Origin: Blasia pusilla
Taxonomy: Eukaryota
Assembly: GCA_050084515.1 (NCBI GenBank)
Contig: CM114271.1
Coordinates: 40,796,001 to 40,860,000 of the forward strand
Length of the DNA: 64,000 nucleotides
Reading direction: 5' to 3'
Below, one piece after another: positions 30,686 through 63,243 of this stretch. The notes below the pieces were generated by a model. The model did not search any database, had not been told where the DNA came from, and saw nothing but the letters and a program-made list of their open reading frames with translations. Both the position numbers and the translations under genes were made by a program. How positions within the stretch are numbered: the stretch's first letter is position 1; each line of letters starts with the position of its first letter.

Positions 30686-31365
30686 AGAAAGTTGATGTCC
30701 TCATGAATGCAAACCTTTGTAATGTTAAGTTCTAGGAAGCCGATCCCTTGACACTGAATCGCGTTCTGGTAGCTAACCCGCAATTCCTCTTTTGGCTTAA
30801 GTCTTAGGCTGTCGCTTGCAGCACTTAGAATTGTTAGCTTCTACACTTCAATCAGCCTAGACCAATTCTGCAGAACTAATCTAAACTATCAAAATAAGCT
30901 AACTAAGTCTGCAACCTAACACTTCACTTAGTATTTGTAAACAACCGCCTATTTATCTAGCCAACTCGTACTACTTTTGGGTCACTCGTATTCTACTTAG
31001 GCGCGTCACTAAGTTCACTCATGCAATATGAATGAGATCACCATAAACCCCAAGACACACTTATCTGCCCCACCGACGTAGGGCGGGTCCAAATGTTAGT
31101 ACTTCAACACTTGGTCATGATCTAGATGCCTTATCCGAATACAAGTTCTCACCTCAAATACTCATTGTTTGGCATCCTTGACTTACATCCTAAGCATATG
31201 AAGAACTACTCATTGCCATGCACTACCAAACTCAAAATCACGATCACAAGCACCGGATCTCCAAATCCTTGCATTCTTTATTGCAACAACTAAACTTTTC
31301 TAGTTACAACGGGTTATCGGCCCAAACTTCCTGGTCACAAGTTATGTCCTTTGCTTCACCATGTA

Positions 31366-34300: not shown

Positions 34301-34575
34301 CTCATCAAGCAAAGGAATCCTTCCTCTAACTCAGTCAAACTCGTACTCGTGATGGTGTTCATCAACTGCGTCTTTCTAGGAACCTCAGGAACCAATCTGA
34401 CGTCCGTCCATTTACCGCTAACCAAGACGCTCAACCTCAAATGTCTTTGCCTTAGTTCCACCTCATACGCATCCAAGAACATATTTCCCAAGACTCCATT
34501 GATTCCGTCCATCTCGCAATCTGTGAAATTTTCCTTCAACTCGAATACTCCACATCCCACAACTAACCCTAAAAC
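31366..34575 (-). pseudogene. Chromovirus (Ty3/gypsy) pol: protease tail, RT, RNase H, integrase, chromodomain; 5' truncated and frameshifted
   Basis: [84 protein letters not shown], and chromodomain LVKWKSHHVKEATW. Confidence 0.93.
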
Positions 34576-35249
34576 GGGGGCTGGTATTGAGGCAGGAGAG
34601 AGGGAGAGAGAAGAGGAAGAGAGGAGAGTCTCTCTTTAAAAAAAAAAGGGCCAAATCCGCCTCCTCTCTTCAAAAAAATTTTACATATTTGAAATTTTTT
34701 TTGCTTTCAAATTCATGAAATCTTTAGAAGAGAGTAGGTAGTGGTCCACATTCGGGCCTAAAGAAACCTCCTTTTTCCAAGGGGCGAAAAACAAGTAGAC
34801 ATCATAAGACCACTACAAACATTTTCCCATCACTCTCCATGTGAGCCTAAGTTTTTTCACGCTGTCTCGCCTCTGATGGCAATGTGCCTGGGCTATTTTT
34901 TTTTGGAGGACCATTGGCAAATAATGTGATCAGAAGTAGCAATCTCATCTCAATGAAAGGTTCAAATAAAGACCAACTTTGTGAAATGTGAACATAGAAG
35001 ACGATAATTGAACCAAAACATTGTTAGTTGTTTGGAATAAAGAGGAACTGATGTCCCTTCATTCAGATCCGAAATCTGAGAAACTGAGAAGCTGCACCCT
35101 TCCCAATCCGTCGGAGTTTTACATGTTGCAACTCTTGCAACCCATCGGAATCAGATGGCTTGCACCCTTTGCAAGCAAGCTCACCATAACAAAGGAAAGA
35201 TTTTGAGAAGTGATTCCATTCCACCCTGCACCCTCGAAGATCCAATTGG

Positions 35250-36380
35250 TTGGGAATCCGAAATGGCAATCCGACAAGCTTTAGGAATCCAACACGTCTT
35301 AGAGAAGAAAAGAAGCCTACGACTGGTTTGACAATACTAGGGGAACGAGCCAAAAGTGAAGAAGTCCGTCAGAATGCCTCAAAAGTTGGTCTCATAGGGA
35401 AAGAGTCCGATCACTCAAGCAGCCAACCTGTCGGAATCCGACAGCTTGCTTGGAAATGGTTAAAAAGTTGCAATGGTGAAAAAGTGACAAGTTGCAACCC
35501 GTCTGAATCAGACAGGTTGCAAAATAAACATTCTAAGTAGCTAGACGAACACAATCGACAAGGTCACAAAAAATATTCAGCAAAATTTTACAAACACCAT
35601 TATCGTTTGAAAAAATCTTGTCCCTTATTACATCCGAAGGAAGCTCGGAAACGATCATTTGATCTAGTATATGATTTCTTCAGCCTCGTCATCTACAAAT
35701 TTACTCCTAACTCTCCTAGGTTCCTGTACAAAAGGAATGTCGTGGGATACAAGTGGCTCCTCTGGCCAATTGTAGACGGGGATCGAAAATATTGGCGAAT
35801 TCGAGAGCCTTGGCACCCCCTTAGGTACACCATAACGGTCCCATGTAACCTGATTTGAGTCCCACCGCCTTCCTTGGCAGTAAATCTTGTACGCTCTGCA
35901 ATATGACACCCATCCAGTATCAATATGTGCTCCGTCCTTGGAGACACCATCATGTCCTCAGCCAGGTAGTAGGAATCCAACACGTATTAGAGAAGAGAGG
36001 AAGCGTAAGACTTGTTTGACGAAACTAGGGGAAGGTGCCAAAGTGAAGAAGCCCACCAGAATGCCTGTAAAGTTTGACTAACAGGGAAAGAGTTCGATCA
36101 CTCACGCAGCCATCCTGTCAGAATCCGATAGGTTTCCTGGAAGTGGTTAAAAAGGTGCAGTGGTCAAAAAGTGAAAAGTTGCAACCTGTGGCAATCCGAC
36201 GGGTTGAAATATGAAGTGTCAGAGTACATAGACGATCACAATCGACAAGACCAAAAAAGATATTCAACAAACTTTTACAAACACCATCATTGTTTGAAAA
36301 AATCTTGTCTTTTATTACATCCGAAGGAAGCTCAGAACTGTACATTTGATCTATTCTATGAATTCTTTTGCCTCATCAAA
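35250..36380. repeat. Subterminal direct repeat (~690-bp period) in the left arm, mirrored at ~50000-51110 in the right arm
   Basis: GGAATCCAACACGT..TAGAGAAGA at ~35284 and ~35972. AAACACCAT....GTTTGAAAAAATCTTGTC at ~35592 and ~36279. Confidence 0.8.
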
Positions 36381-36434
36381 TAAATCCCTACTCCAAAACG
36401 CTGCAATCAAGCACGGTCCTTGAGTACTTTGAAC

Positions 36435-39400
36435 TCACTCTTCATCGTCTGAGAGCTCCTCCAGAATCACTGTCAGCCTTGCCCTCCCGATTGTTTGAAT
36501 TGTGGGAAGTGACGATGGTGTCACTACCAATGGTGGGTCTCGAACCGGAGCTGTCGGCTTCGAAGGAGAGTTGTACTAGCAACAGGCTAGTTGGAGGCCC
36601 CAATTAGCATGTCGTAATGTGCCTTTGCCTCTTTGCAAAGGTCAAACAATTCCTGCCTTCCCTCAAGGCAAAGAATGTTCCTGCCACTTTGCCAGGCGCC
36701 TCTGATACTCGCCCCCGAAAGGCCCACTAAGTCGAACACCAAGTCACCCGGCCTTGAGCAGAGCTCAATTAGCGTTTGCATCAGCACCGTCAACTTTTCC
36801 CTTCCTCCAAGTAAGGGGATACCATTTTCCATGTAAATTCCTGGGGAGGAAATGTATAAACTATCTAAGCTGTACCCATCAGAGCATGGATCCATTGGAT
36901 CGAGGATCTGAAACACTTGGAAGTTGTGCTCATGCCTTACAAAACAGTAGACAAAGGAGTGGTCCATCTGTTAAGAAGTAGGTTTGGAAAAAATGTCAAC
37001 AACAAGAAAGAGCTAATTTCAGTATGCAACAACAAGAAAGGTATACTATTAGAATGGTGACACAATGTGCAACTCGTTCCCAAAGAACTTTGCTTAACCC
37101 CAGAGAACTTAGTTATAGTCCTAATATTGGAGCAACCTGTTGGAGTCCAACGGGTTGTTTTACAAGTGTTAGTGATTTTTTTTGCCATTAGCAACCCGTC
37201 ACAAGGCGACAGGTTGCTAGCTTAGAGCAGCCCATGGTTGGCTAAGAGCAACCTGTTGATTCAGACGCGTTGCATCATTCTAGATACACAAAGAAAAGCA
37301 TAAGCACTTGCAACTCGTCGGGTTCCAACGGGTTGCATTCACCCAATGGAGACTTGCAGTAAATTTGCAACCCATCGCTTTCAGATGGATTGCACCACCG
37401 AAGTCTCCAGCTCAGAAAATCCGATGGGTTGCATGCAGAGATGCAACCCGTCGGAGCTAGAAAATATGGATATGGATTTAGAGGCCTTACCTGGATTTGA
37501 CTCGTCGCGGATCAGAGTGGGTACTCGTTCTTGATGACCCACGATTGCGTCGTCCTTCACTTCAGCGGCGTCTTGACGCACTGCAGGTTGAAGAGCTCGT
37601 CTTGGCTCCCTCCAATCAAAACCAAGAAACAGCCCTTGTCACTGAGATAAGCGTTTGCAAAGGAAAACATGAGTGCGATCTGGTCATAAGAAAGAGGGAC
37701 ATTCTAGTCTGGGACACTGTAGAACGGATGCTTGTCCCACAAGCGCAACCTCGAGGGCAAATCAGCGACAAGGAGATCCACCGCGACCTCCTCGACCTCC
37801 CCATGGACCGTCCAAGGAGCGTGCCCGTTTTGTTGAATCTTCCGTCCCAGCGTTGTCAATTTGTCGATGGTGGGTGTCGACGCTTGGGAACTGAAACTTT
37901 TCAGCTCATCCAAAAGATTCGTGCAGTGAATGATGACGCTTGTCCGGGTCGTTGTTGATCTATGTCTTCCCAAGGATGATGGAGTGTATTCCACATCCTG
38001 GTCTGCTTCCTGGGACAAACCTGGTGCCTCTCGCTTCCGCTTCTCCCAAGTCTGCGATCGACTTGTTGGGGTCTCTATTACCTCATACTCTGGTGGAGTG
38101 TTTTTTGCGGAGGACCTGATCCAATCCTCTCTTTCCACTTGCCCGGAAGATTCCGCCCCTTGCCTTGAATTCTCAGCCTCCTTTTGGGAAGACTCGGCCT
38201 CGGAATTCTTTGATCCCCTCGCCTTGGGTTTGAGACCCGCCATAGATTTTTCCTTGGCGGTGACGACCTTGGACACCAACTCCGTTGTCTCGATGGCTTG
38301 CTCCTCCGCATCTCCTTCGAAAAAGTCTTCAAGTTGCACAAAATTGGGGATGTCGTCCCTACCTGCGGCCACTACATCACTGAGCATGCGTAGATTTTTA
38401 TCGGTTATGTCCTCAGGATCGTTGAAGTCCAGCCAGATCGGGCAATTCTCCACCTCCCAGTCGGACATGCTTTGAGCCATCTCCATGTCGTACATGGAAA
38501 ATGTCTCTCCATTAGGCGGAGAAGCCCACAATTTGCAGGCTGCCGGTATTTTTTGCCACCTACTTGCATTCTTACAATGGACGAGGTACCTGATCACCAT
38601 GTGTTGGGCAACTCTTAGTCGACATGCATCGGCCGCCTGCTCCTGAAGATCTTGCTTTTTCTTTGCGAAATCCCTTTTCCTTCACCTCTATTTCTTCATC
38701 AAGGTCTGCCTCATGGAGGATGTGATCCTTGAACATCGTCCTGAAGCCTAGGTTTTTTATGGGCTTGTCCCGCATGTCATCCAGCCAAAGTTTAAAATCT
38801 TCAGCACTCTCTAGGTTTACTTCCTGCGGAACAACCTCTATTTTTTTCAGCTCTGCTTGGAGGCCCACGAGCATGGACTTCCCGAGAAGCCGCAACGCGT
38901 CCCAGAATGACCATTCACGGAGCCCGTGGGAGATCACTGGATCAGAGACACCTAGAGGATGCTGTACCACCCTCTTTTGGGCCTCTATGCCCTCGAGACT
39001 GATTTTCATTAGTCGGATTCTCCTAAATTCCGAAATTCCAGACAAGGCAAATCAATGGACACGTTCGAGAGATACTTTCTCCCCAATCCGACCGTGCGGA
39101 TCTTCATCCCTCTTCCGCTGGCGCTTGATTATCGCCTTCAGCTCCTTGTAGAAATCGGGGCCAAGTTCGGGGTTGAGAATGGCGATATAGCGCTGCATCT
39201 TGCTTGCAGTGTACTTCGTAGCTCGAGATACTACAGTTTGGATAAACTTAGCACGCTCAGACACAAACACTTTCTCCCTCCGCTCCAGCTCCAATGAAGC
39301 GCTCTTCTTGGCGGCCTGTATCTTCGACCAGCAAAGGATTGTCAGGGCTGCATCTTGGGAAATAAATGTATTTTCCCAAGTCTTTTTTTTTATTTGAGCC

Positions 39401-39584
39401 CCCTTCGCCAGCATCTCATTTACAAGGGCGTCGCCCAAGAACATGTGGTTTCCACTCTTGAACTGGGTCCACGCCATGAACTTGTGGTTTCCATCCCAGA
39501 TGAAGAAATACAGGTTCCGCATCCAACTCAATTCCGTCCCCTCAATCGCCCTTCTGAATTCATGATCTCTCATCCTCCAGAATG
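36435..39584 (-). pseudogene. Left-arm copy of the ParB-like + N6A/N4C methyltransferase-like gene (5' truncated, internal deletion, intron 37490-36968)
   Basis: FFIWDGNHKFMAW; VDLLVADLPS; REKLTVLMQTLIELCSRPGDLVFDLVGLSGASIRGAWQSGRNILCLE. Colinear with the right-arm gene. Confidence 0.75.
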
Positions 39585-39979
39585 GAGGTGCGGTAAGAGG
39601 AGAGGAAGAGAGGAGAGAGGAGAGAGGAAACTACCTTCAACCGAAATAGATACTTTTTTTTTAAGAGAGTTTCCGTTGGGTTGAAGAGAGGAAACTTTTT
39701 GTGTGAATTTTTTTGCACTTTTTTGTTCATTTATTAAGTAGTCCCACAGTTTTTTTTTCCTCTTCCATATTTTGGCAACCCCTCTGAGTTCGACGAGTTG
39801 CAAATTGCACAAAATTTAGAAAACTGAAAAATCAGTGGAATCATAATTGTGGAACCAATCACTTTTTCCATCCAAGGTCTGGAAAAAATCTGTCATTTTC
39901 CCCGGGCTGAATAGAGTTCAAGCTCAAAGTGAAGGTTCAGGAAAAATAAAAGTACAATCTAACACCTCATTTTGCATCC

Positions 39980-42900
39980 TCAAAGTGGTTTGTTTAAAAT
40001 ACTTCGCACTTCTTTAAGGGACAGAATTGGTTGGTGGATTCCTACTCCTACCTCCGACTCTCTTAAAACTACCAGCAACACATAGTACATGTGCTTACAA
40101 GGGAAATACCTTTTGCCACTTGTCTCTCTTTGGACAAAGTCATCACATGAACATGTGGGAAAGCAACAGATGTGCACCACATACATCCCTGTGACTCTTG
40201 AATTTACAGTGTTGTTCCTGACCCAATACATCCTTCCTATTCCATTGCCACTCAAGACATCTTTCGTGGCGATGATCTACATTTTTGCCTCTCGAGCTGA
40301 TGCAATTCGCTTTGCTCTCTCCATCGTTGGCCAACACATTCTGTTTCTCTTCACCCCATTTCTAGACTCAAACAGAAATAATGGATTGAGATCATCCACC
40401 TTCTCCGGGTACATGTTGACATCAATCTTGGGTTGAATACGAAATACGAAGGTCTCTGTAATGCGAACATGCTCCGAACTTCCCCCGTCTACGAGTCTGA
40501 AACCGGCACTTGTAAGATTGTCCACTTCGTCTTGAGTGTAGTTCGTACCTGCGGCGATGGGCCAAATCGTGGGGGTATTCCCCAGAGCTCCAATGGCAGC
40601 CGCATAAGACTTCCGGAAAGCGCAAGATTCATTTGGGCAGAAGAAGTACTTCAATTGATCCCCGGTCCTCGTGAAACGATCAAAGTTTTTGAGTCCCCAA
40701 AACCCAGGCAATGGTCGTCCAGTCCTTGTACAGTTCTTATTTAGGAAAGTGCCGCATGCTCTCCTAATGCCATCAGATCTTGCCCTGCAGGTGAGTCCGC
40801 GTCCTGGGTTACTCTGAGATATATGCCACCGTTTTAGGTTGCAATCCACCTCCATTACCGGAATCCCATATTGTTGAACCACCGTAGTGACAGGATGTTG
40901 CGAACTTCCAGAAACAGAGGGCTTTTGAAATAAAACATTCATTGATTTTGGAGAAGTTACTCCATCACGGATTTGGGATGGGTCCGGGGTCCCCGAATAC
41001 CTGGGCGGCGTAATTTCCTCATCCAAATCAATCACCGGATTCCTTCCTCGATGCTGCCTCTTCACCTGCCTGAAGTCAAGATACTTATCTGATCTCCAAG
41101 TCTCACGGGATCGCTCTACCACCATCTCAGATGGGGACGTCTTGAAACCTGCCCACGAATATCCCCACCAATGTTTACGTCTTGCTCGAGGGGAGTTCCA
41201 GCTACGCACCGGTTGAAGGCTTCCACATACATTTTTCATCACCAGATCTCACAGCCGCCCTGACATAGAGCTCGTAGATCGACGGCCCCCTTCCTTTTGT
41301 TATGCCTTTTGTGAGGAAGATATGGGATGCTGCAGACTGTAGCATTGCTCTTGCCTAGTCTTGTTGGCATGCCTCCACAAGTGAAATTCGTAGGCATGCT
41401 TGTGACGACCTCCACGAGGAATGAACACTTTCTGCTCCACTTGTGTTGGGACAGAGGGCATTTTCATGAACGTTCAATCCCTACAACGACGGCAATGTTA
41501 GAAGGGAACAAAAATAACTCAGCAGTCAAAGACATAAGCTACCTGTCGGAACCCAGACGGGTTGCAAGGCCGAGGCATCCCATGAACGACTCTACGACCC
41601 GTCGGGTCCCGACGCGTTGTAACCTTAAACCCACCTACTGCAACCCGTCGGAACCAGACGGGTTGCAAGGCCGAGGCATCCCATGAATGACTCTGCGATC
41701 CGTCGGGTCCCGACGGGTTGCACACTCGGGTTGCACCAAAAATTTGGATGCAACCCGTCGGTTTCCGTCGGGTTGCACACTCGGGCAACCCGTCGCATCC
41801 GACAGCTTGCTTGGTTTTTTCGATTTGAAATCCCTATAGTTCCCACGCTTCTCACCCTGAGCTACAACTTTACAAACAATTCTCAGCGTGAGCTTGACAA
41901 GACAAAATAGTGAACTCACCTACCGCATGAAGTTTCCCCATTGTCTCATACGTACAGTCCACCAACTCAACCAAGAGCACAACTCTTTGTACTTCCCCTC
42001 AATAGTTCTTCCTGGCATTCCATGGCCTGCTTCAAGGTTTTGTTGTCCTTGCAGCGTTGGAGTAGAGTGGCATGCTCTGTCCTCTTATTCTCCTTGATGC
42101 AAGATTTGGTGTACCGTGTCATAGACTGTTGCCAGTGGAAAGCATCCGACCTTTCCCTCTCCGGTTGAATCTCTCCACCCCATAACACTTCCCGGATAGC
42201 AATCCACCCAGGTTGTGCATTGTCTGCCATGAACACATAAATTTCCGGAGGTGGCCTTTTGTTTTCCTTCACCACCTCCAATAAGAGTAACCAGCACATC
42301 TTCAAACTGCCAACGTCTTCTGCCTTTACTTCACAGACAAATATAGTTTTGAGTCCCTTCTCCACATGGTCATAAACGTGAGCACCCATCGTCAACCATC
42401 CATTTAGCACTCTGGAGCAAATATCAAAGCTTACCCAGCTGCCATAAAGATCTTCCCCTTCCCTCATTCGATCTATAAGATCGAGGCCACTCGACGGACA
42501 TGTGGTTGACATTTTGAAGACATAGGCCCTGGATCCCTCGCCTCCTTGGCCCATGAACTGCCATCTCTGAATGAATGGAAATCTAGAGTTGGCCTTGATT
42601 CTGGCGATGGCATCCATTTCGGCCATCTTTCCATCCAGAACTCGTATTTGACGTAGCAAATTCCAGAAGCATTCAGGATGAGCGAGAAATGCGAGATTTT
42701 CCCATAGTTGTTTCTCCTCAGCCGCCGTGATCTCACCCTGTCCAGGGATTCCAAACAATTGTTCACAAATTTGTGATGTCGTTGTGAGCTTGATCACTCC
42801 GGGCTTTGAACCCGAAGAGTTTCTGTAGACCTTGTCAACTTTCTTCGCCACATCCTCCTTGATGTGTCTCTGAATTGCATCGCTCACAGGATGAGTGTGG

Positions 42901-43910
42901 GAGCCAACATGAACTTCCAGCCTTGTGTACTCTGACGTGGAGCCCAAGTCGTGGACAATGAAAAATATGTATGCAGGACACGCTCCAACGCAGAAGGGCG
43001 ATGCCTGACAATGAGGACATCGATGGCCTCCCGGCGGTATGGTGGCACCGACCTCGTATGGAGTTTCTGCATTCTTGGGGGGGAATTGCGACGTATTGAC
43101 TCGCCCGTTGCGCTCTAGATACGGGCATGCTGGACTTCTACACTCCAAGGCTCCCACGCATTGGCGGCGGGAGACAATCCAAGGACCATCTGGAATTGAA
43201 GCACTAGTCCGTTGAAGCCTGCACCATCGATGACAATCGACTTTTCGCCCATACCCTTTCAGCGCCCTCCATCTTTCTTTTGAGCAGGAGCAGCAAGTGG
43301 AGGCAACTCAAAAATGGAATTACCATCGTACGTGGGCGGCAACTCGTCATCAAGAATGTGCTTGAACATTTTCAAGGCCAGAGACAAAAGCAAACTATTT
43401 TGCCTGATACTCGCAAGAGGAACGAGTAGGCGGACAGAGGGCCCGGTTGGTGTCTGACAGATCCACTGAGGTTGATAACATCCGGAATCTCTTCAGGAAG
43501 AACAACATTGATACGAGCGTGTGAAGTTGGAGTGGAAGCCGGATCTGCAGAGCTTGGAGTTGCAAACGTAGAGCTCGGAGCACTAGGAAATTCTAGACCG
43601 TCTACTTGGGAAACAGACGAATTGGGCAAAAGGGGCCCGTAAACTCAGATTGACCATTTGCTAGAGGTAGGAGATTCCATACTTTACGGTCTGAGGTCAC
43701 TGGTTGGACGGTCTCACCTATTATGTCTTCCGTACCGTCCACCCTAACATCTTTGGATACAAAGATGGTTCCAATTTGGAGAAGAAATCGAACAGAGAGA
43801 AAATTTTCATCCACTGCTATGAAAGACTCTCGAGCTTGCGGTCGAATGATTTCTGATTGAGGAAGGGCCGCCAGATGACTGCCACAAGTGAGCTTAACAT
43901 AATTATCCAT
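39980..43910 (-). pseudogene. Mutator-like (MULE) DDE transposase with an N-terminal GCM-like Zn domain and a C-terminal SWIM finger; one intron (~41918-41482); several frameshifts and stops
   Basis: CVGALECRSPACPY...CPHC...C...HVGSHTH. Catalytic WVSFD, FMADNAQ...AFHWQQS, WLSWWTVR, PNTSGAESVHSSW. SWIM CSCDDF...CKHMYYV. Confidence 0.8.
41500..41810. repeat. Palindrome cluster in the transposase intron
   Basis: Multiple GCAACCCGTCGG-n-(T/C)CGACGGGTTGC variants, including a ~110-bp internal duplication. Confidence 0.85.
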
Positions 43911-43991
43911 TCCCAAAAATTTCGTACGGGAGGAGGGTGAGAATGAGAAAAAGAATGAGAATGAGAATGAGAATGAGAATGAGAATTTTTA

Positions 43992-43998
43992 ATTTATA
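43992..43998 (-). promoter_or_regulatory. TATA box of the transposase gene
   Basis: TATAAAT on the minus strand, followed by (TCTCAT)n and the ATG at 43910. Confidence 0.55.
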
Positions 43999-44204
43999 GT
44001 GAATAGGAAAACAGATACTTCTGACAGATTTTTACTGACAAGATGAATTCGGTAGGTGACATTGTCTGACACAATGGATCCAATTCTGTTGCAATGTGTT
44101 ATCGGATTTGGGAAGCAGAGACGTGGGTTGCGAAGCACACTTCATTTTGTTGGATCCTGTCGGAGTCCTGGTAACTCAACAATTAACCCAAGCTAAGCGA
44201 AGCC

Positions 44205-44767
44205 TACAACCCGTCGGCTTCGGACGGGTTGCACGCTTCTGCCTTCCCTTCAAACGCAAACATGGTCGAAGCTGGCAACCCGTCGCTCTCCGACGAGTTG
44301 CTCGGATATAGCTCCTTCTTGCCCGAAGATGCCGGAGGCGTGCAAACCGTCTGTTCCCGACGAGTTCCACGGGTGCCGCACCTATTTGCCCAAAGATGGC
44401 AAGGCGTGCAACCCATTGCCCTCCGACGGGTTGCGCAAGGGCCTCGCCTTGTGGTGCTTACATGAAGGAAGCGTGCAACTTGTCGGACTCCGACGAGTTG
44501 CGCGGGAAGCCCGCGTTGTTAACCCTTGACGAGGGAAGCGTGCAACCTAGCGGTCTCCGACGGATTGGGCGGGTACGTCCCGTTCTTGTCCAAAGACAGC
44601 GGAGGCGCGCAACATGTTGGTCTCCGACGGGTTGCGTGGGTACCTCGCGTTCTTGTCCAAAGACGGCGGAGGCGCTCAACCCGTCGGTCTCCGACGGATC
44701 GTTCGCGCACGTGGCGACGTACCCAGGACGGCGGAGGCGCGCAACCTCTCGGACTCCGATGGGTTGC
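44205..44767. repeat. Array of nine 27-bp palindromes at ~67-bp period in the divergent promoter
   Basis: Copies start near 44208, 44275, 44342, 44408, 44475, 44542, 44609, 44677 and 44741. Confidence 0.9.
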
Positions 44768-44857
44768 CATTTTTTCACGTCCGGACTTCCGTAACCTCCG
44801 GCACGTCGCCGTCGAAAGGACGACCGGACCCAAGGGTCAGCCCAACGGCTAGAAAAG

Positions 44858-44865
44858 TATAAATA
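44858..44865 (+). promoter_or_regulatory. TATA box of the ParB-MTase gene
   Basis: TATAAATA followed ~20-60 nt later by a CT-rich/TCA initiator-like region; ATG at 45125. Confidence 0.6.
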
Positions 44866-46224
44866 GGGCAGAAATTGCTCATTTCCGGTTTCTCATTTTG
44901 CGATCTCCATTCCTCTCTCTCCCGCGCAGCAGCTGATCAGATACCAAGGGGCGTTTCACACGGCGAGTCATCGCGAGTCGATACAAGGGAACGAGAGTGA
45001 GACGGTTCGACTGAACGATCACGAGACGATTCAAGCTACCCATCAAGGCGACTCATCTTGACATCAGCAAGGCGACTGATCAAGCGATTCATCGTGGACA
45101 TAGGTGGAGGCATTTCCGAAAAAAATGACGAGGAAAAAATCACAAGCAAACAAGTTTGGGAGCTTCACTCCGAAGTCCATTTGTACTCCTGCGTCAGCAT
45201 CTCCAGGGCCTCGTTCGGCAAATGAAATTAGGCAGCAAGAAATCAAGGAGCGGGAAAGCGAAGCGGAGATGCACAACCAGGAGCTTCTTGCGAGACGTGT
45301 TCAAGAGGCGCTTGATAGACAGAACGCAGAGGCTGAGACGTCGCAGGCCTTGAAGAAAAGGATCGCCGACGAAAAGAGAGAAAAGAAGCGTCTGGACGCG
45401 TCGGTGAGGAGAGCAGAATTGGCTAAAGCGATGAGGGAAAAAGCGATAGCCATTGATGACAGCCCTGCTTGTCCAACCGAAAGTGTTGAGATGCGGGAAA
45501 TGTCCCCGATGAAGTCCGGGGACACAATCAACATAGCGGAAACGCCAGAAGTTCAAATCACGGACGATGAGGTCATGAGGACCGCTAGCGTGGAGATGGT
45601 GGACATTGCCGAAGAAGCCGGAGAGCGGTCATTCTCGTCTCCAAGCACGGCAGAAGACATCAACCTCTATCGTATCGACGAGTTCCTAGTCGATTTTCCA
45701 GCTTTTGTCTCAGACAAGTTGGCTGGTCAAGAAACCGACCCAATTTTTGAGCGGGTAAGAGAGGATCTGGAATTTTTGAATTATGTGAATTGCAATTCAT
45801 TGGGAATTCAATGTAGCTTATTGATCAGTCCGACGAGGACATTGCAAAGCTTAAACAATCGGCAGAAACAGCATCCTACGTCGATAGTTTTCCTCCCTTA
45901 TATGTTCAGCCTTACGACGAGCATGGAACCCAAGCCCTGGTTACGGAGGAGGACTTGGAAAAGCTCCACACATTCTGGAGGATGAGAGACCACGATTTTA
46001 GAAGGCAAGCAGAGGGCACGGAATTCAGCTGGATGAGGAATCTGTATTTCTTCATCAGGGATGGAAATCACAGGTTCATGGCGTGGACCAAGTTTGCAGA
46101 GGAGCAGCCCAACTCCTTGGAGCCACATTTTTGCGTGAAGGCAGTGGTCCTTCATCCATTCCCTCATCACATGGCGACGGTGGAGATGGCAATGCATGCC
46201 ATGAACACGTGAGTATCTTCTTGC

Positions 46225-46980
46225 TGCAAACCGTCGGACTCCGACAAGTTGTTTGGGTCGGTAGTGTTGTTGGGATGCTTTTGGCCAAACGCAACTCGTC
46301 GGACTCCGACAAGTCGCTCGATTGATGAATGGCTTACGTTTTTTTTTGCCGAAAGCAACTCGTCGGACTCCGAGTTGCTCGACTCGACGCTTTTTCAGGA
46401 TGTTTCTTGAAGAATGCAACTCGTCGGACTCTGACGAGTTGTTCGACTGACCACAGGTTTAATACGTTTTTGACCCAAAGCAACCCGTCGGAGTCCGACG
46501 GGTTGCTCGACTCGCCGCCTTTTCAGGATGTTTTTTGAAGAAAGCAACTCGTCGGACTCCGACTAGTTGTTCGACTGACCGCAAGTTCAGTATGTTTTTT
46601 GCCCAAAGCAACCTGTCGGAGTCCGACGGGTTGCTTGACTCGAAATTGTTTTTGGCCGAAATCAACTCGTCCGAGTCCGACAGGTTGCATTCGGAAGTTG
46701 GTTTAGCAAATTTCGCGTCAAATTGCAAGTTTCCATTCAATTGCGCAACCTGTCGGACTTTGACGGGTTGCTATGTTCACGTTAGTATGTTCAATTCCAC
46801 AACCCGTCGGAGTCCGACGGGTTGAAACCAAGAATTAGCAAATCTGAATGCAATCCGTCGGACTCCGACGGGTTGCATCATTTAGCTCGTTGCTAGAATC
46901 CGACTTTGAGCTGTGACGACCCGTCGGAGTTCAACGGGTTGCAGGAACCCATGTAACTTACAAATTTTCTGACGGGTTGA
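46225..46980. repeat. Palindrome array (~12 copies, ~64-bp period at the 5' end) in intron 1
   Basis: Perfect copy GCAACCCGTCGGAGTCCGACGGGTTGC at 46480-46506. Spacers alternate A/B. Confidence 0.9.
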
Positions 46981-49099
46981 GTTTGGATGTGCAGGATTGT
47001 ATCGGAGGGTAATGTCACCCACCACTGGATCCAAGATTGCGATCGGGTGAAGAAGGTGCTTACGATGCACCCGGGAGAGTACAAGGGGTTCTTGGGCGAC
47101 GCCCTGGTAAATCAGATGCTTGCAAAGGGTGCTCAGATAAAAAAGAAAACTTGGGCAAATAAGTTTATTTCCCAAGATGCAGCCGTAACCATCCTTTGCT
47201 GGTCGAAGATACAGGCCGCGAAGAAGAGCGCTGCATTGGAGCTTGAGCGGAGGGAGAAAGTATCTAGGTCTGAGCACGCGAAATTCATCCAAGCTGCAGT
47301 ATTTGCAGCCACAAAATACACGGCGAGCAAGATGCAGCGATACATCAGCATTCTCAACCTCGAACTTGGTCCAGAGTTTTACAAGGAGCTGAAGGCGATT
47401 ATCAAGCGCCAGCGGAAAAGGGATGAAGATCCGCAAGGTCGGATTGGGGAGAAAGTGTCCTCGGATCACGTGCATCGGTTTGCGGTGTCTGGCATAAGAG
47501 AGTTTAGGAGGATCCGACTGATAAAAATCAGTCTCGAGGGCAGAGAGGCCCAGAAGAGGGCGGCACACCATCCTCCGGGTGTGTCCGATCCAATGATCTC
47601 CCACTGGCTACGCGAATGGTCGTTCTGGGACGCGTTGCTATGGTTATCGGAAGTCCGTCGGACGGTCTGCAAGCAGAGCTCAAAAGATTAGAGCCCATTC
47701 CGGATGAAGCAAACCTGGAAAGTTCTGTAGATTTCGAGGTTTGGCTCGAGGACATCCAGGACAAGCCAATAAAAAACCCAGGATTCAAGACAATGTTCAA
47801 GGTTTGCGTCCTACCTCAAGCAGAGCTTGACGAAGAAATCGAGGGGAACAAACGGGATCAAGCAAAGAAGAAGCGAGATCTACAGGAGCAGACGGCCGAT
47901 TCAGTTCGAGTAAAAGTTGCCCAACGGATGGTCTTCAGGTACCTCGTCCAATGTAAGAATGCAGGTTCCTGGGGAAAATTATCGGCAGCCTTGAAATTGT
48001 GGGCTTCGCCGCCTGATGGAGAGACATTCTCCATGTACGACATGGAGATGGGGCAGCACATGTCTGATTGGGAGGTGGAGAATTGCCCCATTTGGCTTGA
48101 CTTCAACGATCCTGAAGACATCACCGATAAGGATTTACGAGTGCTTCATGATGCAGTGGCCTCAGGACAAGACGACATCCCCAATTTTGTGCAGCCTGAA
48201 GACTTCTTCGGAGGAGGAGATGCGGAAGAGCAAGCCCACGAGACAGCTAAGTTGGCTTCCAAGGTCCGCACAGCCAAAGAAAAATCCACAGCGGGTCTCA
48301 AAGGCAAGGCGAGGGGAGGGAAAAATTCCAAGGCCGAGTCTTCCCAAAGAGAGGCTGAAGATTCAAGGCCAGAGGCGGAATCGTTCGGGCGAGCGGAGAG
48401 AGAGGGTCGGACCAGGTCCTCGGCGAAAAAAAACCCCACCAGAGTCTGAGGTCATAGAGACCCCGACAAGCCGTCCGCAGACTCGGGAGAAGCGGAAGCG
48501 AGAGGTGCCAGGGTTGTCACAAGGAGAATACAGTCCATCATCCTTGGGAAGACATAGACAAACAACGACCCGGACAAGCGTCCTCCTTCAGTTCACTCCT
48601 TTACTGGATGAGCTGAAAAGCTTCAGTTCTCAAGCGTCGACACCAGCCATTGATAAATTGACAACGCTGGGACGGAAGCTCCAACGAAATGGGCACGCTG
48701 CCTGGACGGTGATCTCTTGATCGCTGATCTGCCCTCGAGGTTGCGACTATGGGGCGAGAATCGTCGGACGGGGTACCTGAGTGGAATGTGCCGCTCTCTT
48801 ATGACCAAATCGCGCTATTGTTCTCCTTTGCAGACGCATATCTAAGTGATAGGGGCTGCTTCTTGGTGTTGACTGGAGGGAGCGAGGACGAGCTCTTCAA
48901 CCTCCAGTACGTCAAGAGGTCGCTAAAGTGGAGGACGACGCAATTGTGGATCATAAAAAATGAGTACCCACTCCGATCCGCGACGAGTCAGATTCGGGTA
49001 AGGCTCAATTCCTGTAGTATAAGATCAAATATATTTTCAAATTTGGGTAAGGCTCAATGAGTGTTAATTTCAAATAGTATATCTCCGTTGTTTTTTTCC

Positions 49100-49330
49100 G
49101 TAAGCAACCCGTCGGAAGGCGACGGGTTGCTGGCTTAGAGCAGCCCATGCTCAGGGAACCCGACGGGTTGCAGTTGCTTCTGGTTTTTCCCTGTGTTTCC
49201 GGAAAGCTGCAACCCGTCGGAAAGCGACGGGTTGCTCACGCGATGGGTTGCTGCTCTAGGCCAGCAACCCATCGCCTTCCGACGGGTTGCTCACGGACAA
49301 AACAACCCGTCGGACTCTGACAGGTTGATC
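49100..49330. repeat. Palindrome cluster in intron 2 (counterpart at ~37130-37460 in the left arm)
   Basis: GCAACCCGTCGGAAGGCGACGGGTTGC and variants. Confidence 0.85.
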
Positions 49331-51778
49331 CAAAGTTAGTAATTGAAAAAGTTCTCTAGGGTCAAACCGACTTCTTTGGTGACGTGTTGCACATTATGCC
49401 AAGTTGCTGACATTGTTTCCAACGTGCTTCTTTACAGATGGACCACTCCTACGAATACTGCTTCGTTCGGCCCGAGCACAATTTCCAGGTGTTCAAGATC
49501 CAGAATCCTGTGGATCCATGCTTAGATGGGTACAGCTTAGATAGTTTGTACAATTCCCCCCCGGGAATTTACATGCAAGATAGTACCCCACTTCTGGGAG
49601 GAAGGGAAAAATCGCCAGCCCTCATGCAAACGCTCATCGAGCTCTGCTCAAGGCTGGGTGACTTGGTGTTCGACTTAGTGGGACTTTCAGGGGCAAGTAT
49701 CAAAGGCGCCTGGCAGAGTGGCAGGAACATTCTCTGCCTCGAGGGAAGGCATGAACTGTTTGACCTTTGCAAGGAGGCAAAGGCAGAATACGAAAGGCTC
49801 ATTGGGGCGTACAACTCTCCACCGAAGCCGAGAGCTCCGGTTCCAGACCCACCATTGGTAGTGACTCCATCGTCACTTCCAACGATTCCGAAAATCGAGA
49901 GGGCAAGGCCGAAAGTAATTTTGCAAGAGCTCTCGGACGATGACGAGTGAGTTCAAAGAACTCAAGGACCCAGCTTGACTGAAGCGTTTGAGTAGGGAGT
50001 TATTTGATGATGAGGCAAAAGATTTCATAGAATAGATCAAATGTACAGTTCCGAGCTTTTTTTGGATGATATAAAGGAGATGATTTTTTCGAACGATGGT
50101 GGTGCTTGTAAACATTTGCTGAACATTTTTTATGTCTTTTCGAATGTGATCGTCTATGTACTCCGCGGACTTCTATTTTGCAACCCGTCGGATTTCTCCA
50201 GCTTGCAACTTTTCACTTTTTGACGACAACACCTTTTTACCACTTCCAGACAACCTGTCGGATTCCGACATGTTTCCTGATCGGATTCGATCGGTTTCTC
50301 GATCGGACTCTTCCCTGTTGGTCCAACTTAAGAGGCGATCGGAGGGCTTCTTCCTTGGCACCTTCCCTCAACTCGTAAAGGCGGCGAGGCTTCTTTTCTT
50401 CTCTCGACGTGTTGGATTCCTACTACCTATGCGATTGCCATAATGGTATTACCAAGGACGGAGCACATATTGATCTTTGGATGGGTGTCACATTGCGGAG
50501 CGCACAAGGTATCTTTGCCGAGGAAGGCGGTGGGACTCAAATCAGGTTACATGGGACCGTTTTGGCGCACCTAGGGGGGGGGGCAAGGCTCTCGAATTCG
50601 CCAACATCTTTTATCCCCGTCTACAATCGGCCAGAGGAGCCACTTGTATCCCAGGACATTCCTTTTGTACTGTCACCGAGGAGAGTTAGCAGTAAATTTG
50701 TAGATGACGAGGCTGAAGAAATCATAGACTAGGTCAAATGTACATTTCCGAGGTTCCTTCGGAGGTAATAAAGGACGAGATTTTTTCAACCCATAATGGT
50801 GTTTGTAAAAGTTTGCTGGAATATTTTGTTGGACTTGTGGATTGTGTTCTTTTAGCTACTCAAAATTACAATTTTGCAACCCGTATGATTCTGACGGGTT
50901 GCAACTTTTTGCTTTTTGCCCACTGCAACTTTTTAACCATTTCCACGATTCCGATAGGTTGACTGCTTGAGTGATCGGACTCTTTCCCTGTGAGACTAAC
51001 TTCTGACGCATTGTGGCGGGCTTCTTAACTTTTGGCTTGTTCCCCTACATTTGTCAAACCAGTTGTAGGCTTCTTTTCTTGTCTAAGATGTGCAAGATTC
51101 CTACTACCTGTCGGATTGCCACCCAACCTGTTAGATTGTCGTGGGTGCAGGGTGGAAGAAAATCACTTCTAAAAATCTTTCCTTTCTTATGGTGAGCTTT
51201 CTTACGGGTTGGGAGGGGTGCAGCTTCTCGGTTTCTCAGCTTTAGGATCTGAATGAAGGGACATCAGTTCCTCTTTACTCCAGACAGCTAACAATCTTTT
51301 GGTTCAATTATCCTCTCGTGTGTTCACATTTCACAAAGTTGGTCTTGAGCATACACCATTCATAACCAACAGAAAGTTGGTTATGGGGCAATTCAGGGGA
51401 GGCCATGATGCAGGCAACAATCCCTGCAAAAAGAGAGGTCGGCATCCGGGTGGTCCTCCAACAAAAATACCCATGGGCACTGCTTTTTGTAGACCGAGAC
51501 AGGTAATGTTAAGAAACTTAGGCTCACATGGAGAGTGATGGAAAAATGTTTGTAGTGGTCTTATGATGTCTACTTTTTTTTCGCCCCCAGGAAAAAGGAG
51601 GTTTTTTTAGGGCCAAATGTGGACCACTACCTACTCTCTTCTAAAGATTTCCTGAATTTGAAAGCAAACAAAAATTTCAAATATATCATAAAGTTTTGAA
51701 GAGAGGAGACGAATTTGGCCCTTTTTTTTTAAGAGAGACTCTCCTCTCTTACTCTCTCCTAATAGAATATCAGCCCCC

Positions 51779-55329: not shown

Positions 55330-58300
55330 TGTTGTGGGTACTTATGCTTGTGGGGGGGGTATTTTATAGCACCAGTCACTTGAGAATATATATTAAAAAA
55401 TCAGGGATATATCCTCAATATGCCTTATGTAATGGTTACATAACCGAATATATTGTACCGTCTATCGAGAAATTTTACGTATGCAATCAGTGCATAGGAA
55501 ACAACCCAAAAATTGCACACAATGTGTACATGACGCCAACATATATTTGAGATTGTTGGGTGTTAACCCTTTATACATGCAATTTTTATCTCTTGTAGAC
55601 TTGAGCCTCGGGATTGAAACCAAATACAATGGCTTTCATGGGTTTTTTCAGGTTGAGCCCTTGCTGGATTGTCCGTTTATTGCTTGGGGACTTGCGGACT
55701 CAACCGTGACAAATTAAGTCTTCTTGTACTGCAAGGTCAGGAATGTTCTATTAGTGAACTTACAAATCAATGAACTATATTCGTAGTATGTCCTGCTTAT
55801 TGAGCTACCTGATCCAACATGTAGGTTTGTGGTTCTACCATCTTCATCTGTTGAAACTATTTTGAAGGCATCCCAAGAGAAGGGGAAGATGACACATAGT
55901 ATGCGTTTGGACCCTTATAGTGTTGAGCTCAATGTGTTGCAAGACGTACAGTACTCACTACCCGTAAAGAGAAGACATGCATATGACATATTTCATAGTG
56001 GCAGCGTGTTTCTTAGAGAGCATACACACGTTCGCGAGCAATTTCTTAGTGACAAAGACGGTATATCGCCAAACTCAAAGTTAACTATTGAGACTGGAAT
56101 ATTTTTATTCTTGTTTCCCTACCTTAAGGGATATTCCATTGGTCGATACCCCTTTTTTTATAACCTTTGGAGCCGAGTGAGAAAAATATTAAGTATGTTT
56201 ACACTTTACAAGACATACTTGCTTCTTATGCATTAGTTTTGAGAGTCTATTACGCTAGCTAGCTTCACGAACTCGCTCATGCATCTTAAATAGATAACTA
56301 GATCAGCTAAAAGTGAAGTATCCAGAACTTACCGAACAAGAATTGTATTCCTATTTATCTAGAATATTGTGAGTGTACAGATCCCAAGAACCCCTAGCTG
56401 GCATCGCTGCCATCTTAGGGACCTTAAAGCCATGGTCTAGGCCCCATTTCTTCTTGACCCTTACATTTGATGAAGTATCTTATACAAGGAGGTCTGAAAT
56501 ATCCAATATTGAGGCACTAGTGAAGAAGATGAACCCATCTATTACATGGCACGATGCACTTGTTGAGTGTGTTGTATTTTTCATACTAGACTGAAAGCTT
56601 TCTTTTATTACTATATCCTAGGCGGACGGTGCATACTAGGAAGTATGCAGAATAACCTCGTTAGATGTGAGTTGCAAGGTCGGGGTAGCTTGCACTTGCA
56701 CATTATACTATGGGTAAACAAGCACGACATTGATCGGGTCACAAGCAAAATATGTTGCTATATTTCCTTAGTGGAATAGTGTAGTCCCGAGCAAACAGCC
56801 TATTCTAGCATGACTGCCATGCTGCAAAAATACGTAACTTCAAAACAATTACATATATGTAGGCCAGATGGCTGTATCACCAAAGCAACCAGAGATCACC
56901 CACCATATTTCTACATAGGTTTCCCCGCTCCTACCAACATGCAAGTAGAACGTGCCATAGATCCAAAGACTGTGAAATTGAACTATTACATACCTAGTGA
57001 ATGTCACATGAACGTTATACCACATCACCATGCTATCTTGCTCTTGTGGGGTGCCCATATGAATTTACAATGTGTTATGAATGTGCAATGGTCTTTTTAT
57101 CTATTGAAATATGCCTTGAAATGTGGACCCCAAGGTGCCCTCAATATCACAATGGAATGTGATAAGAACCTTGGGCTTGAGGGCTTGGACCATACAAGAT
57201 TTGCGGCTAATATCTGGACTAGTGCTCAATAGGTTGGTTTCTTCCAATGATCCCAATTATCACAAGGGTGTTCAATATATTGATTTCAGCCCACCGTATC
57301 AACGAACTACATTTATATATTATACAAAAATGCAATAATTGTATGCATACATCCCACCACACTCGATTGCCATTGCCTAGAATGTTTTTCTAATTTGACA
57401 TTTGTACAGTTCTGGACTCACCATGAGGTTTCTAAGCTTACCACAAGAACCACCAACAACTTTTTTGGCCTTGATTTAATAGGAAATTATGTTTATACAA
57501 CATCGAGGCTTGTTTGATTTATTGAATATCATCCCTTATACCAGTGGAACGAGTTCTTTAATACATTACTACTAAGAAAAATGTGCTTCAGATGTGAGTC
57601 ACAAGTGTTGTCTATCTCATCGACACCTGGACCTATCTACACGAGTGCATCCATAGAAAAATATTCAAAAGTGCATTGTGTATTGTAAATGAAATCGAAC
57701 ATCATACCACCGTCAGCCTCTAGAGCCAAGTCCATGCTAGTGAAATCATTGCATCCCACCTCTATTTTGACTTACATGTTGATTCATTTCCGGACCATGT
57801 TGATCAACCTTTTGTCTTACCCACTCCTATCCGACGAGAAAGTCAAGCAGATTCCCAACCAACCTTGCCATACACTCATTAAATCTATAACAAACAGATC
57901 TGTATCACAAGATGAAAGCCATGACAAGTGGACTCTTCATGCTAACTGGCCCACCGGGTTGTGGAAAGACCTTTTTTTATTAACTTAATGCCAAAATTCT
58001 TGTCGTTCAATTGCATTCCTACACTCTTGGTTGCAACTACAGGAATCGCGGATGTACGCTAGCATCCCACTGCCACAACTGTGCACTCAACATTTGGTAT
58101 TCTGGTAAAGGGAGATCTTCCTTGCAACAAACAACTTCAAATCAGTATATGAATCTACGAGACTCCAAGGTCATCATTCTAGACGAATGCTCTATGCTTA
58201 GACCTTGCCTACTACAAATAATTGCTTTAAGGTTATTCCGGGTCGCCTTGTCGTCGAACATGGACCCTTTCTAAAAAAGAATTGTCATTTTATTAGGTGA

Positions 58301-59075
58301 TCTCTGCCACCTACCTCCTATATGTCGCCACAGCAGTCGCCCTTTTCTCTTTTTTTCCCTTCTTCCACATATCTTCTTCACCATTTTACAACAGTATGAA
58401 AAAATTACAGCCTGCATGCACCAATGAGGCACGTTAGTGACCTTGAATTCCTTACATTTATGTCACACATAAAAAGAGAAAGTCCTACCCAGGACCACAT
58501 AGAAAATTACCTTGGTAGTTGCATTGTAGATGAGGATGTTGCTATAGATTATATAGATTATTGTACTCGAATAATTTGTACACACTATGTCGATGTGCAA
58601 GTGTTCAATCGTGTTGCCCTTTGCATACTATTTGGTATAGTTGAAATCTTTCCAGTGCATTTAACAACAGATGCTCTTGGTGACATGTATTTCAGTGATT
58701 GGATATCAAAAAATCAGTTTTGTGAGCTTCAATTTCTAGGAATAGGGTGTAGTGTCTTGCTTACATCAAACATCGACATGAAAAACCAGACAGCAAACGA
58801 TGCATTGGGCACGGTTGTAGATTGCATTTATAAACAAAAAGACCTAGTTGGTATCTTAGTTAGCCAAGTTATCAAGGTAACAAGAACGAACTTTGCTACG
58901 TTGAGGCATGGGCCTAACTGGAAATATCATAAGCGCACTTTCCCACTTATGTTGGGCTATGCTATGACTGGCCATAAGAGTCAGGGTCTGACAGTAAAAG
59001 GCAAGTGTTTGCTTAACATCAAGTCTGCCTTTGCCATAGGACTTGTGTTTATCATGTTGTCTCGTGTGTAGAGTA
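55330..59075 (+). pseudogene. Helitron RepHel (HUH Rep + PIF1-like SF1 helicase), heavily disrupted
   Basis: Rep motifs PHFFLTLTFDE, RCELQGRGSLHLHIILW, YLLKYALK. Helicase motifs LTGPPGCGKT (~57945), VIILDECSML, LLGDLCHLPPI, FPLMLGYAMTGHKSQGLT, IMLSRV. Confidence 0.9.
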
Positions 59076-62231: not shown

Positions 62232-63243
62232 TGTCGCGACCCTCATAACCAAACAAGCACCAAATAGGCGCCAAGCGGAACATTGGAACTCTAGTGGACT
62301 CACGCTACGATGATCGCGGTTTGGAGAGGCTTTTGGAAAGATCTCTTGGAACAGTCCAAGAGACAAAACACAGAATAGAGTTTTGTGTTTCATGGGCGAC
62401 CACAAACTTGGACCAAAAGCAAACCAAGACTTGAGATAAGTTGGAAGGTTGGTTGTCAAAGAGATGAGAACCAATTTTGGAACATGACTAGCGTTTGGGG
62501 ATTTTGACTGTGTTTCGGACCATAACGTTTAGCCCCAAGATGCATTCGAGACAAAGAAGGGCGCTTTGGAAAGCTTATCCCCAAGATTCTTCCAACGCAC
62601 CAAAGATCTCAAAAAATACATTAGTATAGGATGAGATATTGGCCAAAAACGATTGTGACAACAATCGGGTTGAGGGCCAATCTGAGGGGCCCGAATGTCT
62701 TTCGCTAAAGTTAGGGGGAAGGCGGGGATCCTCAGAAGTACTAGCAAGGGGGAGTCTCTCCAAGGAGTCTTAAAACACAATCCCCCACTTTGAGCACCAA
62801 ACGGCGTCTCAAGGGCACGGGATGGAACGAGAGTTTGACGTTGGAACTCCAAACCCAAACCTGATCCAAGGGAGTGGACTTTGTAAGCCACACTTGGATT
62901 CCAACCCACGATTCATTTTCGTGACTTGCGGCTAGGGACTCATTGGATGTCCATTGGAGAGTTGGAACCGCCAGGCATTGAAAGGTCGTTTGAGGTTCCT
63001 GAACCGACTAGAAAGTTTGTCCCAAGTCTGCAAAGACTTGCCTATGTTGTAAACCGCAAAATTAGGAAGGTTGAGCTTGATGAGAGGCCGAGTCGAGAAC
63101 TCGACAAGTTAGAACCGCTGATTGATCCATACCCTAAACGTGAGTGCGTGTTTGGATGCAGATCAACGTTGAGAGCGTGTCTTACCGAACACACGTTTCT
63201 GCAACAAACAAGATTAACGTCCAAGGAGAGTAGGCGCACGACA
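62232..63243 (+). mobile_element. Solo LTR (1012 bp) of the chromovirus family, with 5-bp TSD TATTA
   Basis: TGTCGCGACC...GCGCACGACA, with TATTA at 62227-62231 and 63244-63248. Homologous to 29643-30672. Confidence 0.93.

Follow-up and report, generated by a model that had tools for sequence, protein, structure and literature searches.

A 64,000-nucleotide stretch of Blasia pusilla DNA (contig CM114271.1, positions 40,796,001 to 40,860,000 of the forward strand; hereafter the window, with coordinates counted from its first letter) contains two inverted copies of a transposon-borne gene whose product would carry a domain related to the N6-adenine/N4-cytosine DNA methyltransferases of the beta class. 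Both copies, referred to as A and B, are pseudogenes with frameshifts, stops and deletions. The family to which they belong probably encodes an accessory protein of a Mutator element, in which the methyltransferase-derived domain would be non-catalytic and would serve to recognize palindromes carried by the element itself.

Variant methyltransferase motifs in two inverted copies

Copy A extends over 45971-51346 (+) and copy B over 39584-34969 (-), with approximately 82% identity between them. No third copy was present in the window, where tblastn searches with the exon pieces of copy A returned A and B only. A six-frame regular-expression search placed DLLIADLPS at 48711-48737 (+) and DLLVADLPS at 37752-37778 (-), together with FDLVGLSG at 49669-49692 (+) and 36713-36736 (-). 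The same search detected neither the canonical DPPY nor DPFxGSG in either gene copy, and the sole DPPY of the window (31078-31089, -) is unrelated to them. In both copies DLL[IV]ADLPS precedes GDLVFDLVGLSG, that is, the motif-IV-like stretch is located upstream of the X-I-like stretch. EKSPALM is limited to copy A (49606-49626), its equivalent in copy B being EKLTVLM. The sequence-only reading that this analysis followed up had proposed such a pair of diverged copies, with DPPY and DPFxGSG replaced in both, and it is borne out on these two points.

The nearest protein relatives appear, by sequence, to be those of the moss Ceratodon. A HMMER scan of 1.84 billion proteins gave four matches, among them a 758-amino-acid (aa) hypothetical protein of Ceratodon purpureus (E 1e-6, with 41% identity across the motif block) and a 147-aa ENA protein; the other two (P0002 and P0003) were discarded as repeat or low-complexity artefacts, judged from their sequences. 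Three more Ceratodon paralogs were found, giving a total of four proteins that are encoded on four chromosomes, are annotated as hypothetical and share 32–41% identity with the window domain. The N-terminus of the Ceratodon proteins resembles exon 3 of the window gene weakly (E 0.14), and no counterpart of exon 2 was seen among the annotated Ceratodon proteins, which may either be devoid of the ParB-like part or carry faulty annotation. A collection of 5.8 billion clustered proteins held no relatives apart from this multi-copy Ceratodon set. Word-based protein searches gave no match to the C-terminal half of the domain among longer proteins and none to the read-through of copy B at similar lengths, and in metagenome scans with two alignments (A2 and A3) the patterns fitted 188 and 449 stretches, respectively, none of which was confirmed.

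The domain descends from beta-class N6/N4 DNA methyltransferases (PF01555) of bacterial or phage type, most plainly in its C-terminal half. In Pfam, PF01555 matched the C-terminal half of the domain in copy A (E 0.0021, 18.5 bits) and in copy B (E 0.0025, 18.3 bits), spanning positions 165–220 of the 221 of the profile, and the N-terminal half matched no Pfam family. Four methyltransferase families were matched in PHROGs (best E 6e-5), and tblastn against phage genomes gave a best E of 1e-4, with 21 of the 25 listed rows annotated as methylases and four unannotated. When the C-terminal half was used as a single sequence against the PDB, M.RsrI came first (E 0.29), and five of the seven matches corresponded to a precorrin methylase and HDAC4. 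A profile made from the window family and the Ceratodon and ENA sequences (alignment A1, nine rows) gave nine PDB matches, eight of them beta-class N6/N4 DNA methylases: the best was DpnA (E 4.4e-4), and TTHA0409, CcrM, M.RsrI and the bdelloid N4CMT (chains at E 1.3–1.4) were also found. The CcrM alignment places 'idlivadaPeglpv' opposite 'VDLIFADPPYNLQL'.

The relationship is clearest in profile–profile alignments with six phage methylases, four of which are confirmed as PF01555 (E ~1e-42) and two (L005 and L006) are included by annotation alone. Local hhalign comparison of the family domain with this set gave a probability of 97% (E 8.7e-11). The global alignment covers 240 columns (E 2.8e-13) with motifs IV, V/VI, VIII, X, I and II in register, and in it the family shows the permuted motif order (IV-VIII before X-I-II), with iDLiiaD.P facing iDliitDPPY. 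Exon 4, which encodes the C-terminal half, aligned on its own with an E of 2.4e-11, and the motif-X/I/II block is approximately 35–39% identical to the phage enzymes. The beta-class placement of motif IV before X-I, claimed at the outset, is thus upheld by hhalign against the phage enzymes and by the family profile against the PDB. An AlphaFold2 (AF2) model of the Ceratodon protein P0004, built with alignment A1, reached a mean pLDDT of 31.8, too poor for a fold search; within residues 426–653 of this low-confidence model the predicted order of strands and helices is compatible with a methyltransferase.

Catalytic motifs, selection and activity

A closer comparison of the motifs reveals which positions the family has kept and which it has lost. 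In the four Ceratodon proteins the motif IV region reads I-D-[LM]-I-[FI]-A-D-A-P-E (ADAPE) and the motif I region G-D-I-V-F-D-W-S-A-[NS]-T-G-A-S (for example DWSANTGAS); in the ENA protein the motif I region is V-A-D-L-S-A-S-T-S-A-S. None of the five family rows that cover motif IV has the PP-aromatic, the proline being followed by S or E, and none of the seven rows has the first glycine of FxGxG, which is L, N or S. Motif I takes a different form in each group (DLVGLSGAS, DWSA[NS]TGAS and DLSASTSAS), with the second glycine kept in six of seven rows. The motif-II glutamate is kept in all seven, LCLEG, [IL]ALER and FGMEG aligning to the phage G[VI]E. Residues that define the fold, and several on the cofactor side, are retained throughout the family: in motif IV the aspartate and a single proline, then EK.P, GD.V[FA]D, (S/T)[GS]AS and the glutamate of motif II. 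Five of the six phage enzymes match both DPPY and D.F.GSG, and L006 matches neither expression. Since the Ceratodon paralogs also carry non-canonical motifs, PPY and the FxGxG glycine have been lost family-wide.

Neutral decay of a once-canonical, captured methyltransferase into a functionless protein could in principle produce such variants, and the window copies are indeed full of frameshifts and stops. The frame of copy A is broken relative to B near 47640-47690, 48425-48446, 48711 and 48762; the motif-IV stretch of A is out of frame with its neighbors because 28 nt are missing at 48711 and a 1-nt difference occurs at 48762. Copy B has suffered a deletion of about 1 kb with respect to A, which includes the rest of exon 2. 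Its reading frame meets a stop near 39052 and shifts near 38680, three in-frame stops interrupt the N-terminal half of the methyltransferase, and exon 4 is cut short by a 20-nt insertion. The differences between A and B, however, retain the imprint of coding constraint. They affect 89, 92 and 209 of 811, 811 and 809 sites at codon positions 1, 2 and 3, respectively (chi-square p 2e-16), third positions having changed 2.3 times as much as first or second ones, with flat intron and 3' non-coding controls. The ratio of nonsynonymous to synonymous divergence (dN/dS) is 0.22 overall, 0.11 in the N-terminal half of the domain, 0.21 in the C-terminal half and 0.11 in the stretch that resembles ParB. 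Given this codon-position bias and the low dN/dS, the A and B lineages diverged under purifying selection and were disabled later. The intact Ceratodon proteins, at 32–41% identity, have the same non-canonical architecture, and neutral decay is a very improbable account. The proposal that the variants are family features and not decay therefore gains support both from the purifying selection between A and B and from the non-canonical motifs of the four Ceratodon proteins and the ENA protein.

An alternative that deserves more weight, unlikely as it is, would have the domain still act as a DNA methyltransferase with an unusual D-x-P-x loop, modifying N6-adenine or N4-cytosine, perhaps within its own CG-rich palindromes. 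Both halves of the domain are under purifying selection, the window copies and Ceratodon have conserved the motif-IV aspartate and proline, the glutamate of motif II, GD.VFD and (S/T)GAS, and bacterial-type PF01555 enzymes are active in eukaryotes, as the bdelloid N4CMT (PDB match at E 1.3) and Marchantia DN4MT1 exemplify (bioRxiv 10.1101/2021.02.12.428880, in the part cited here). Against an active enzyme stand the S or E that takes the place of the aromatic after the motif-IV proline in every row covering it and the L, N or S at the first FxGxG glycine in 7/7 rows; moreover, these positions vary between the window family and Ceratodon, as they would under relaxed catalytic constraint. There is also a precedent in METTL14, where EPPL replaces DPPW and loss of the stacking aromatic goes together with a degenerate active site and an inactive protein (PMC5023411, in the sections drawn on here).

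Of the two options offered by the sequence-only reading, altered chemistry or a dead fold, a non-catalytic domain is to be preferred over an active enzyme, as judged from the motifs, because the catalytic motifs have been lost across the family, the lost positions differ between lineages and METTL14 provides a precedent. Such differences between the window family and Ceratodon would follow if selection no longer maintained catalysis. The domain would no longer transfer methyl groups and would act instead in binding DNA or a partner, in the way that METTL14 works alongside METTL3. As long as it was active, the family kept the domain under purifying selection.

The element, its palindromes and the N-terminal region

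The gene model of copy A, inferred from the sequence, comprises four exons and three GT..AG introns, and an intact product would be about 1,180 aa long. Putative exon 1 (45125-45754, +; first ATG at 45125) encodes a charged, coiled-coil-like stretch in which no Pfam family was found; it is followed by the donor GTAAGA and, by tblastn within the window, is present in copy A only. Intron 1 (45755-45816, +) ends with the acceptor AG at 45815-45816. Exon 2 (45817-46208, +) contains a candidate ParB-like region with 'FFIRDGNHRFMAW' and is followed by the donor GTGAGT (46209-46214), which opens intron 2 (46209-46994, +). Exon 3 (46995-48997, +) comprises a middle region and the N-terminal half of the methyltransferase-like domain with its DLLIADLPS. 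Intron 3 (48998-49437, +; GTAAGG...TTTACAG) has both its donor and its acceptor conserved in copy B. Exon 4 (49438-49950 with the stop, coding to 49947, +) encodes the C-terminal half, 170 aa with REKSP...GDLVFDLVGLSGAS...LCLEG, and is continued by a shared 3' non-coding part (49951-51346, +) that is 86% identical to that of B. Inside this 3' part the segment 50006-50248 resembles 50703-50945. Copy B (34969-39584, -) is 5'-truncated and broken, with its exon 4 at 36969-36587. The gene exceeds the range of 45900-49950 initially given for it, starting near 45125 and interrupted by the three inferred introns.

When up to 3 mismatches are allowed, the window contains 33 sites of a 25-bp palindrome, CAACCCGTCGGA-N-TCCGACGGGTTG, all of them within 35424-50901 and none expected by chance. 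Within the window the palindromes are thus restricted to the element, where they occupy introns and upstream sequence, in homologous positions in the two copies, and their arrays have a period of 64–67 bp. Ten sites (46227-46941, ~64-bp period) occupy intron 2 of copy A, the corresponding stretch being deleted in B, and four occupy intron 3 (49105-49327); three more were found in intron 3 of copy B (37133-37335), at positions homologous to those in A. Seven sites (44207-44766, ~67-bp period) fill the spacer that separates copy A from the transposase gene, and four cluster in the transposase region itself (41595-41775). The protein would recognize these arrays, both in its own introns and in the spacer toward the transposase gene, and recognition would mark or protect the copies of the element that encodes it, in a manner comparable to that of VANC in the VANDAL elements of Arabidopsis.

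The transposon-borne nature of the gene, part of the sequence-only reading, is corroborated by the adjacent transposase gene, by the copy number of the family and by the element-specific arrays. The transposase gene (39980-43307, -), putatively of the Mutator-like element (MULE) type, consists of open reading frames (ORFs) of 446 and 323 aa located directly upstream of copy B on the same strand, and copy A is transcribed divergently from it. A candidate C-terminal SWIM zinc finger lies at 39980-40276, where PF04434 matched with an E of 0.0038 and 17.2 bits, short of its cut-off of 19.6. The language-model neighbors of the 446-aa ORF (score 0.96, 187 of 256 features shared) belong to the MULE family in ten of ten cases. 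DNA contigs of the same-species run X1 contain 10,938 pieces with at least 90% identity to parts of the 17.5 kb compared, and the family is therefore high-copy. At 51346 and 34969 the homology of the two copies breaks off abruptly, with the same terminal 22-mer in each (51325-51346, +; 34969-34990, -). The arrangement corresponds either to one composite element with inverted arms of about 5 kb or to two separate insertions. Inverted homology resumes further outward, between 34608-34860 and 51508-51758 (91%) and between 29643-30672 and 62232-63243 (82%), unrelated stretches of 108 and 161 bp parting it from the gene copies; a larger palindromic duplication may account for this, or else an insertion into a further element with inverted repeats.

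Raw RNA reads aligned at a minimum of 90% identity reach a depth of 0–7 and come mostly from copies that are 90–95% alike. For each of the three genes the RNA is in sense orientation, provided that the library is of the usual stranded type. No splice joint of the gene reached the listing threshold in these reads. Reads stop exactly at the exon-4 acceptor of copy B (36969) in three runs (13, 11 and 19 reads), and the 30-nt consensus of the upstream exon that is joined there to exon 4 has no match in the window; therefore, the expressed members of the family differ upstream of the last exon. In two runs (7 and 9 reads) the RNA skips 1,150 bp of the transposase region, 40659-41810, with the non-canonical ends CC..TG on the + strand, which is probably a deletion variant of the transcribed copies and not an intron; the skipped segment contains the palindrome cluster. 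Other reads link the 3' region of B with that of A on 'opposite strands' (35942 and 36393 with 49959 and 49990), probably from transcribed copies elsewhere in which the internally duplicated 3' units are arranged differently.

Since host-fragment capture is frequent in MULEs (PMC6446971, to the extent cited here), the gene could also be a host gene or fragment picked up by a Mutator element in Pack-MULE style, the motif variants then belonging to a host family. The Ceratodon relatives, annotated only as hypothetical proteins and dispersed over four chromosomes, would fit such an origin. However, the family is high-copy in the DNA contigs, and the palindrome arrays run through the introns of the gene, the transposase region and the spacer, so that gene and element share cis-sequences. 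The copies also diverged under selection while they multiplied, unlike typical captured fragments, and the 5.8 billion clustered proteins yielded no relatives outside the multi-copy Ceratodon set. Host capture is accordingly a rather improbable origin.

The N-terminal part of the protein had been labeled a ParB/Srx domain, and this label found no significant score in any of the collections searched. A DGxHR-type motif, typical of ParB-like domains, follows a beta-strand in both copies ('FFIRDGNHRFMAW' in A and 'FFIWDGNHKFMAW' in B). PF02195 was not matched in Pfam at E ≤1, no ParB protein was present among the PDB matches at E ≤10, and none was found in NCBIfam. The PHROG 'ParB-like partition protein' reached an E of 0.4 against the ParB-like region, and tblastn of this region against phages returned fibritin only (E 0.2–0.5). 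A weak Pfam match to DUF1015 (E 0.023) was seen beside these checks. The language-model lead is inconsistent: in the two top clusters (score 0.94) ParB_N is present in 11% and 32% of the proteins, the numbers of shared features are low (156 and 151), and only 5 of the 10 best neighbors agree, which the search tool itself rated 'probably wrong'. The AF2 model of exon 2 from a single sequence has a pLDDT of 39.1. A ParB/Srx identity of the N-terminal part is about as likely as not. A more speculative extension, to which little more than a tentative place can be given, would combine both ends into a single accessory protein, with a ParB-like module and a catalytically silent beta-class fold, that would read the arrays of its CG-rich palindrome in its own introns and in the promoter-side spacer and shield or mark the element against host silencing. 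This would constitute a eukaryotic counterpart, encoded by a transposon, of parS/ParB self-recognition, assembled independently of the Arabidopsis VANC and the red-algal PAG2/PAG3.

Several observations weigh against a non-catalytic, palindrome-recognizing Mutator accessory protein. Regarding the fold, the PF01555 match of the C-terminal half stays below the gathering cut-off of 26.7 bits, the N-terminal half aligned on its own is weak in hhalign (P 0.011, probability 3.8%), with the correct register, and the putative Rossmann fold is indicated by profile alignments only. Inactivity is read from the motifs, and the aspartate, one proline, the motif-II glutamate and GD.VFD have been kept; these residues would be compatible with binding of S-adenosylmethionine or with an unusual chemistry. 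Both window copies are dead, a point absent from the sequence-only reading. Their dS (0.50) exceeds the divergence of the aligned non-coding parts (0.16–0.26), so that dN/dS may overstate the constraint. The link between protein and palindromes is one of co-location only, and the changes that keep the symmetry of the palindrome arms are in modest excess (9 cells against 4.7 ± 1.8 in shuffled arms, a value of 9 being reached in 10 of 500 shuffles). Finally, no 8–11-bp direct repeat with at most 1 mismatch was detected as a target-site duplication within ±12 bp of the homology ends, and the MULE transposase domain PF10551 was not matched in Pfam at E ≤1, for which reasons the Mutator assignment is incomplete.

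The window as a whole is eukaryotic, with GT..AG introns, Ty3/gypsy fragments and an uneven GC content. Three ORFs, judged by eye from their translations, resemble pieces of Ty3/gypsy elements (26911-27456, +; 31366-31881, -; 33877-34635, -) and look like RNase H, integrase/chromodomain and protease-RT. Two further ORFs (56780-57232 and 58400-59071, +) bear some resemblance to a Helitron/PIF1-type helicase, and the latter matched no Pfam family at E ≤1. An acidic, internally repetitive ORF of 952 aa occupies 3-2858 (-), open at the window edge, with serine-rich ORFs opposite (1-957, +). A (TGAGAA)n microsatellite of 8 copies (43938-43986) is situated just upstream of the transposase gene.

Comparison with known systems

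Bacterial-type DNA methyltransferase domains are rare in eukaryotes. To our knowledge, the transposon-borne cases reported to date are those of red-algal DNA transposons and the Dam-type enzymes of retrotransposons. Two host enzymes of bacterial origin, the N4CMT of bdelloids and the DN4MT1 of Marchantia, are active and have canonical catalytic motifs; the window protein resembles them in having a PF01555-type domain in a eukaryote, and differs in that this domain is transposon-borne and degenerate. With the PF01555 enzymes in general (DpnA, M.RsrI, CcrM and the phage 'DNA adenine methylases') it has in common the order of motif IV, motifs V-VIII, a variable region and motifs X, I and II. Unlike them, the window family is devoid of the PP-aromatic and of the first glycine of motif I, and its domain is placed inside an intron-bearing eukaryotic transposon protein of approximately 1,180 aa.

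The domain pair suggested by the sequence-only reading does exist in phages, where proteins adopting the ParB-CTPase fold are fused to an N6_N4 methyltransferase and are enriched in phages and prophages (PMC12704722, as far as cited); in the window protein the ParB part of this pair is putative. No ParB domain was detected in any of the four nearest phage methylases scanned, nor PF02195 in any of five phage records. METTL14, in the sections drawn on above, offers a parallel of another kind, a methyltransferase fold kept under selection without its stacking aromatic and employed as a nucleic-acid-binding scaffold. In contrast to the window domain it belongs to the MT-A70 family, has an RNA substrate and is encoded by a host gene, and it therefore serves as an analogy only.

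With respect to the palindromes, a parallel is offered by VANC, a protein that binds short motifs repeated in tandem within introns and upstream regions of the MULE that encodes it (PMC5735166, in the portion cited). As far as that portion goes, both cases involve an accessory gene of a Mutator element and motif repeats in accessory-gene introns and upstream of the transposase, nearly confined to their own family; the VANC motifs, however, are 9-mers in direct orientation and not 25-bp palindromes. A sequence relation between VANC and the window protein is not expected.

The nearest published kin are accessory genes of red-algal transposons. Plavaka, Mutator and Zisupton elements of red algae carry PAG2, with PF01555 and SET domains, and PAG3, with a ParB-like domain and a 2OG oxygenase (bioRxiv 10.1101/2025.02.11.637652, main text as cited here). 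The window element shares with them a PF01555-type, and possibly a ParB-like, cargo on DNA transposons that include Mutator, and tandem arrays of inverted repeats beside the gene; the PAG copies described there are likewise mostly degenerate and weakly transcribed. It departs from them in having one protein instead of two and in belonging to a land-plant lineage, the comparison being made by description only. The methyltransferase motifs of the window family are also degenerate, whereas PAG2, by the account of its paper, passes InterPro as PF01555, and neither a SET nor a 2OG domain was found in the window pieces scanned against Pfam at E ≤1 to 10. The full-text literature searched contains no description of the family in land plants; the supplements on its red-algal kin (Supplemental Table 6, Fig. 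13 and the Chondrus reference 46 of the preprint) lie outside that scope.

In comparison with these systems, a Mutator family of land plants that kept a methyltransferase domain under selection after the loss of its catalytic signature represents a clear candidate for a methyltransferase-derived transposon pseudoenzyme. Together with the element-specific palindromes, the domain would form a testable pair of protein and site, through which a DNA transposon may recognize its own copies and interfere with host silencing in bryophytes.

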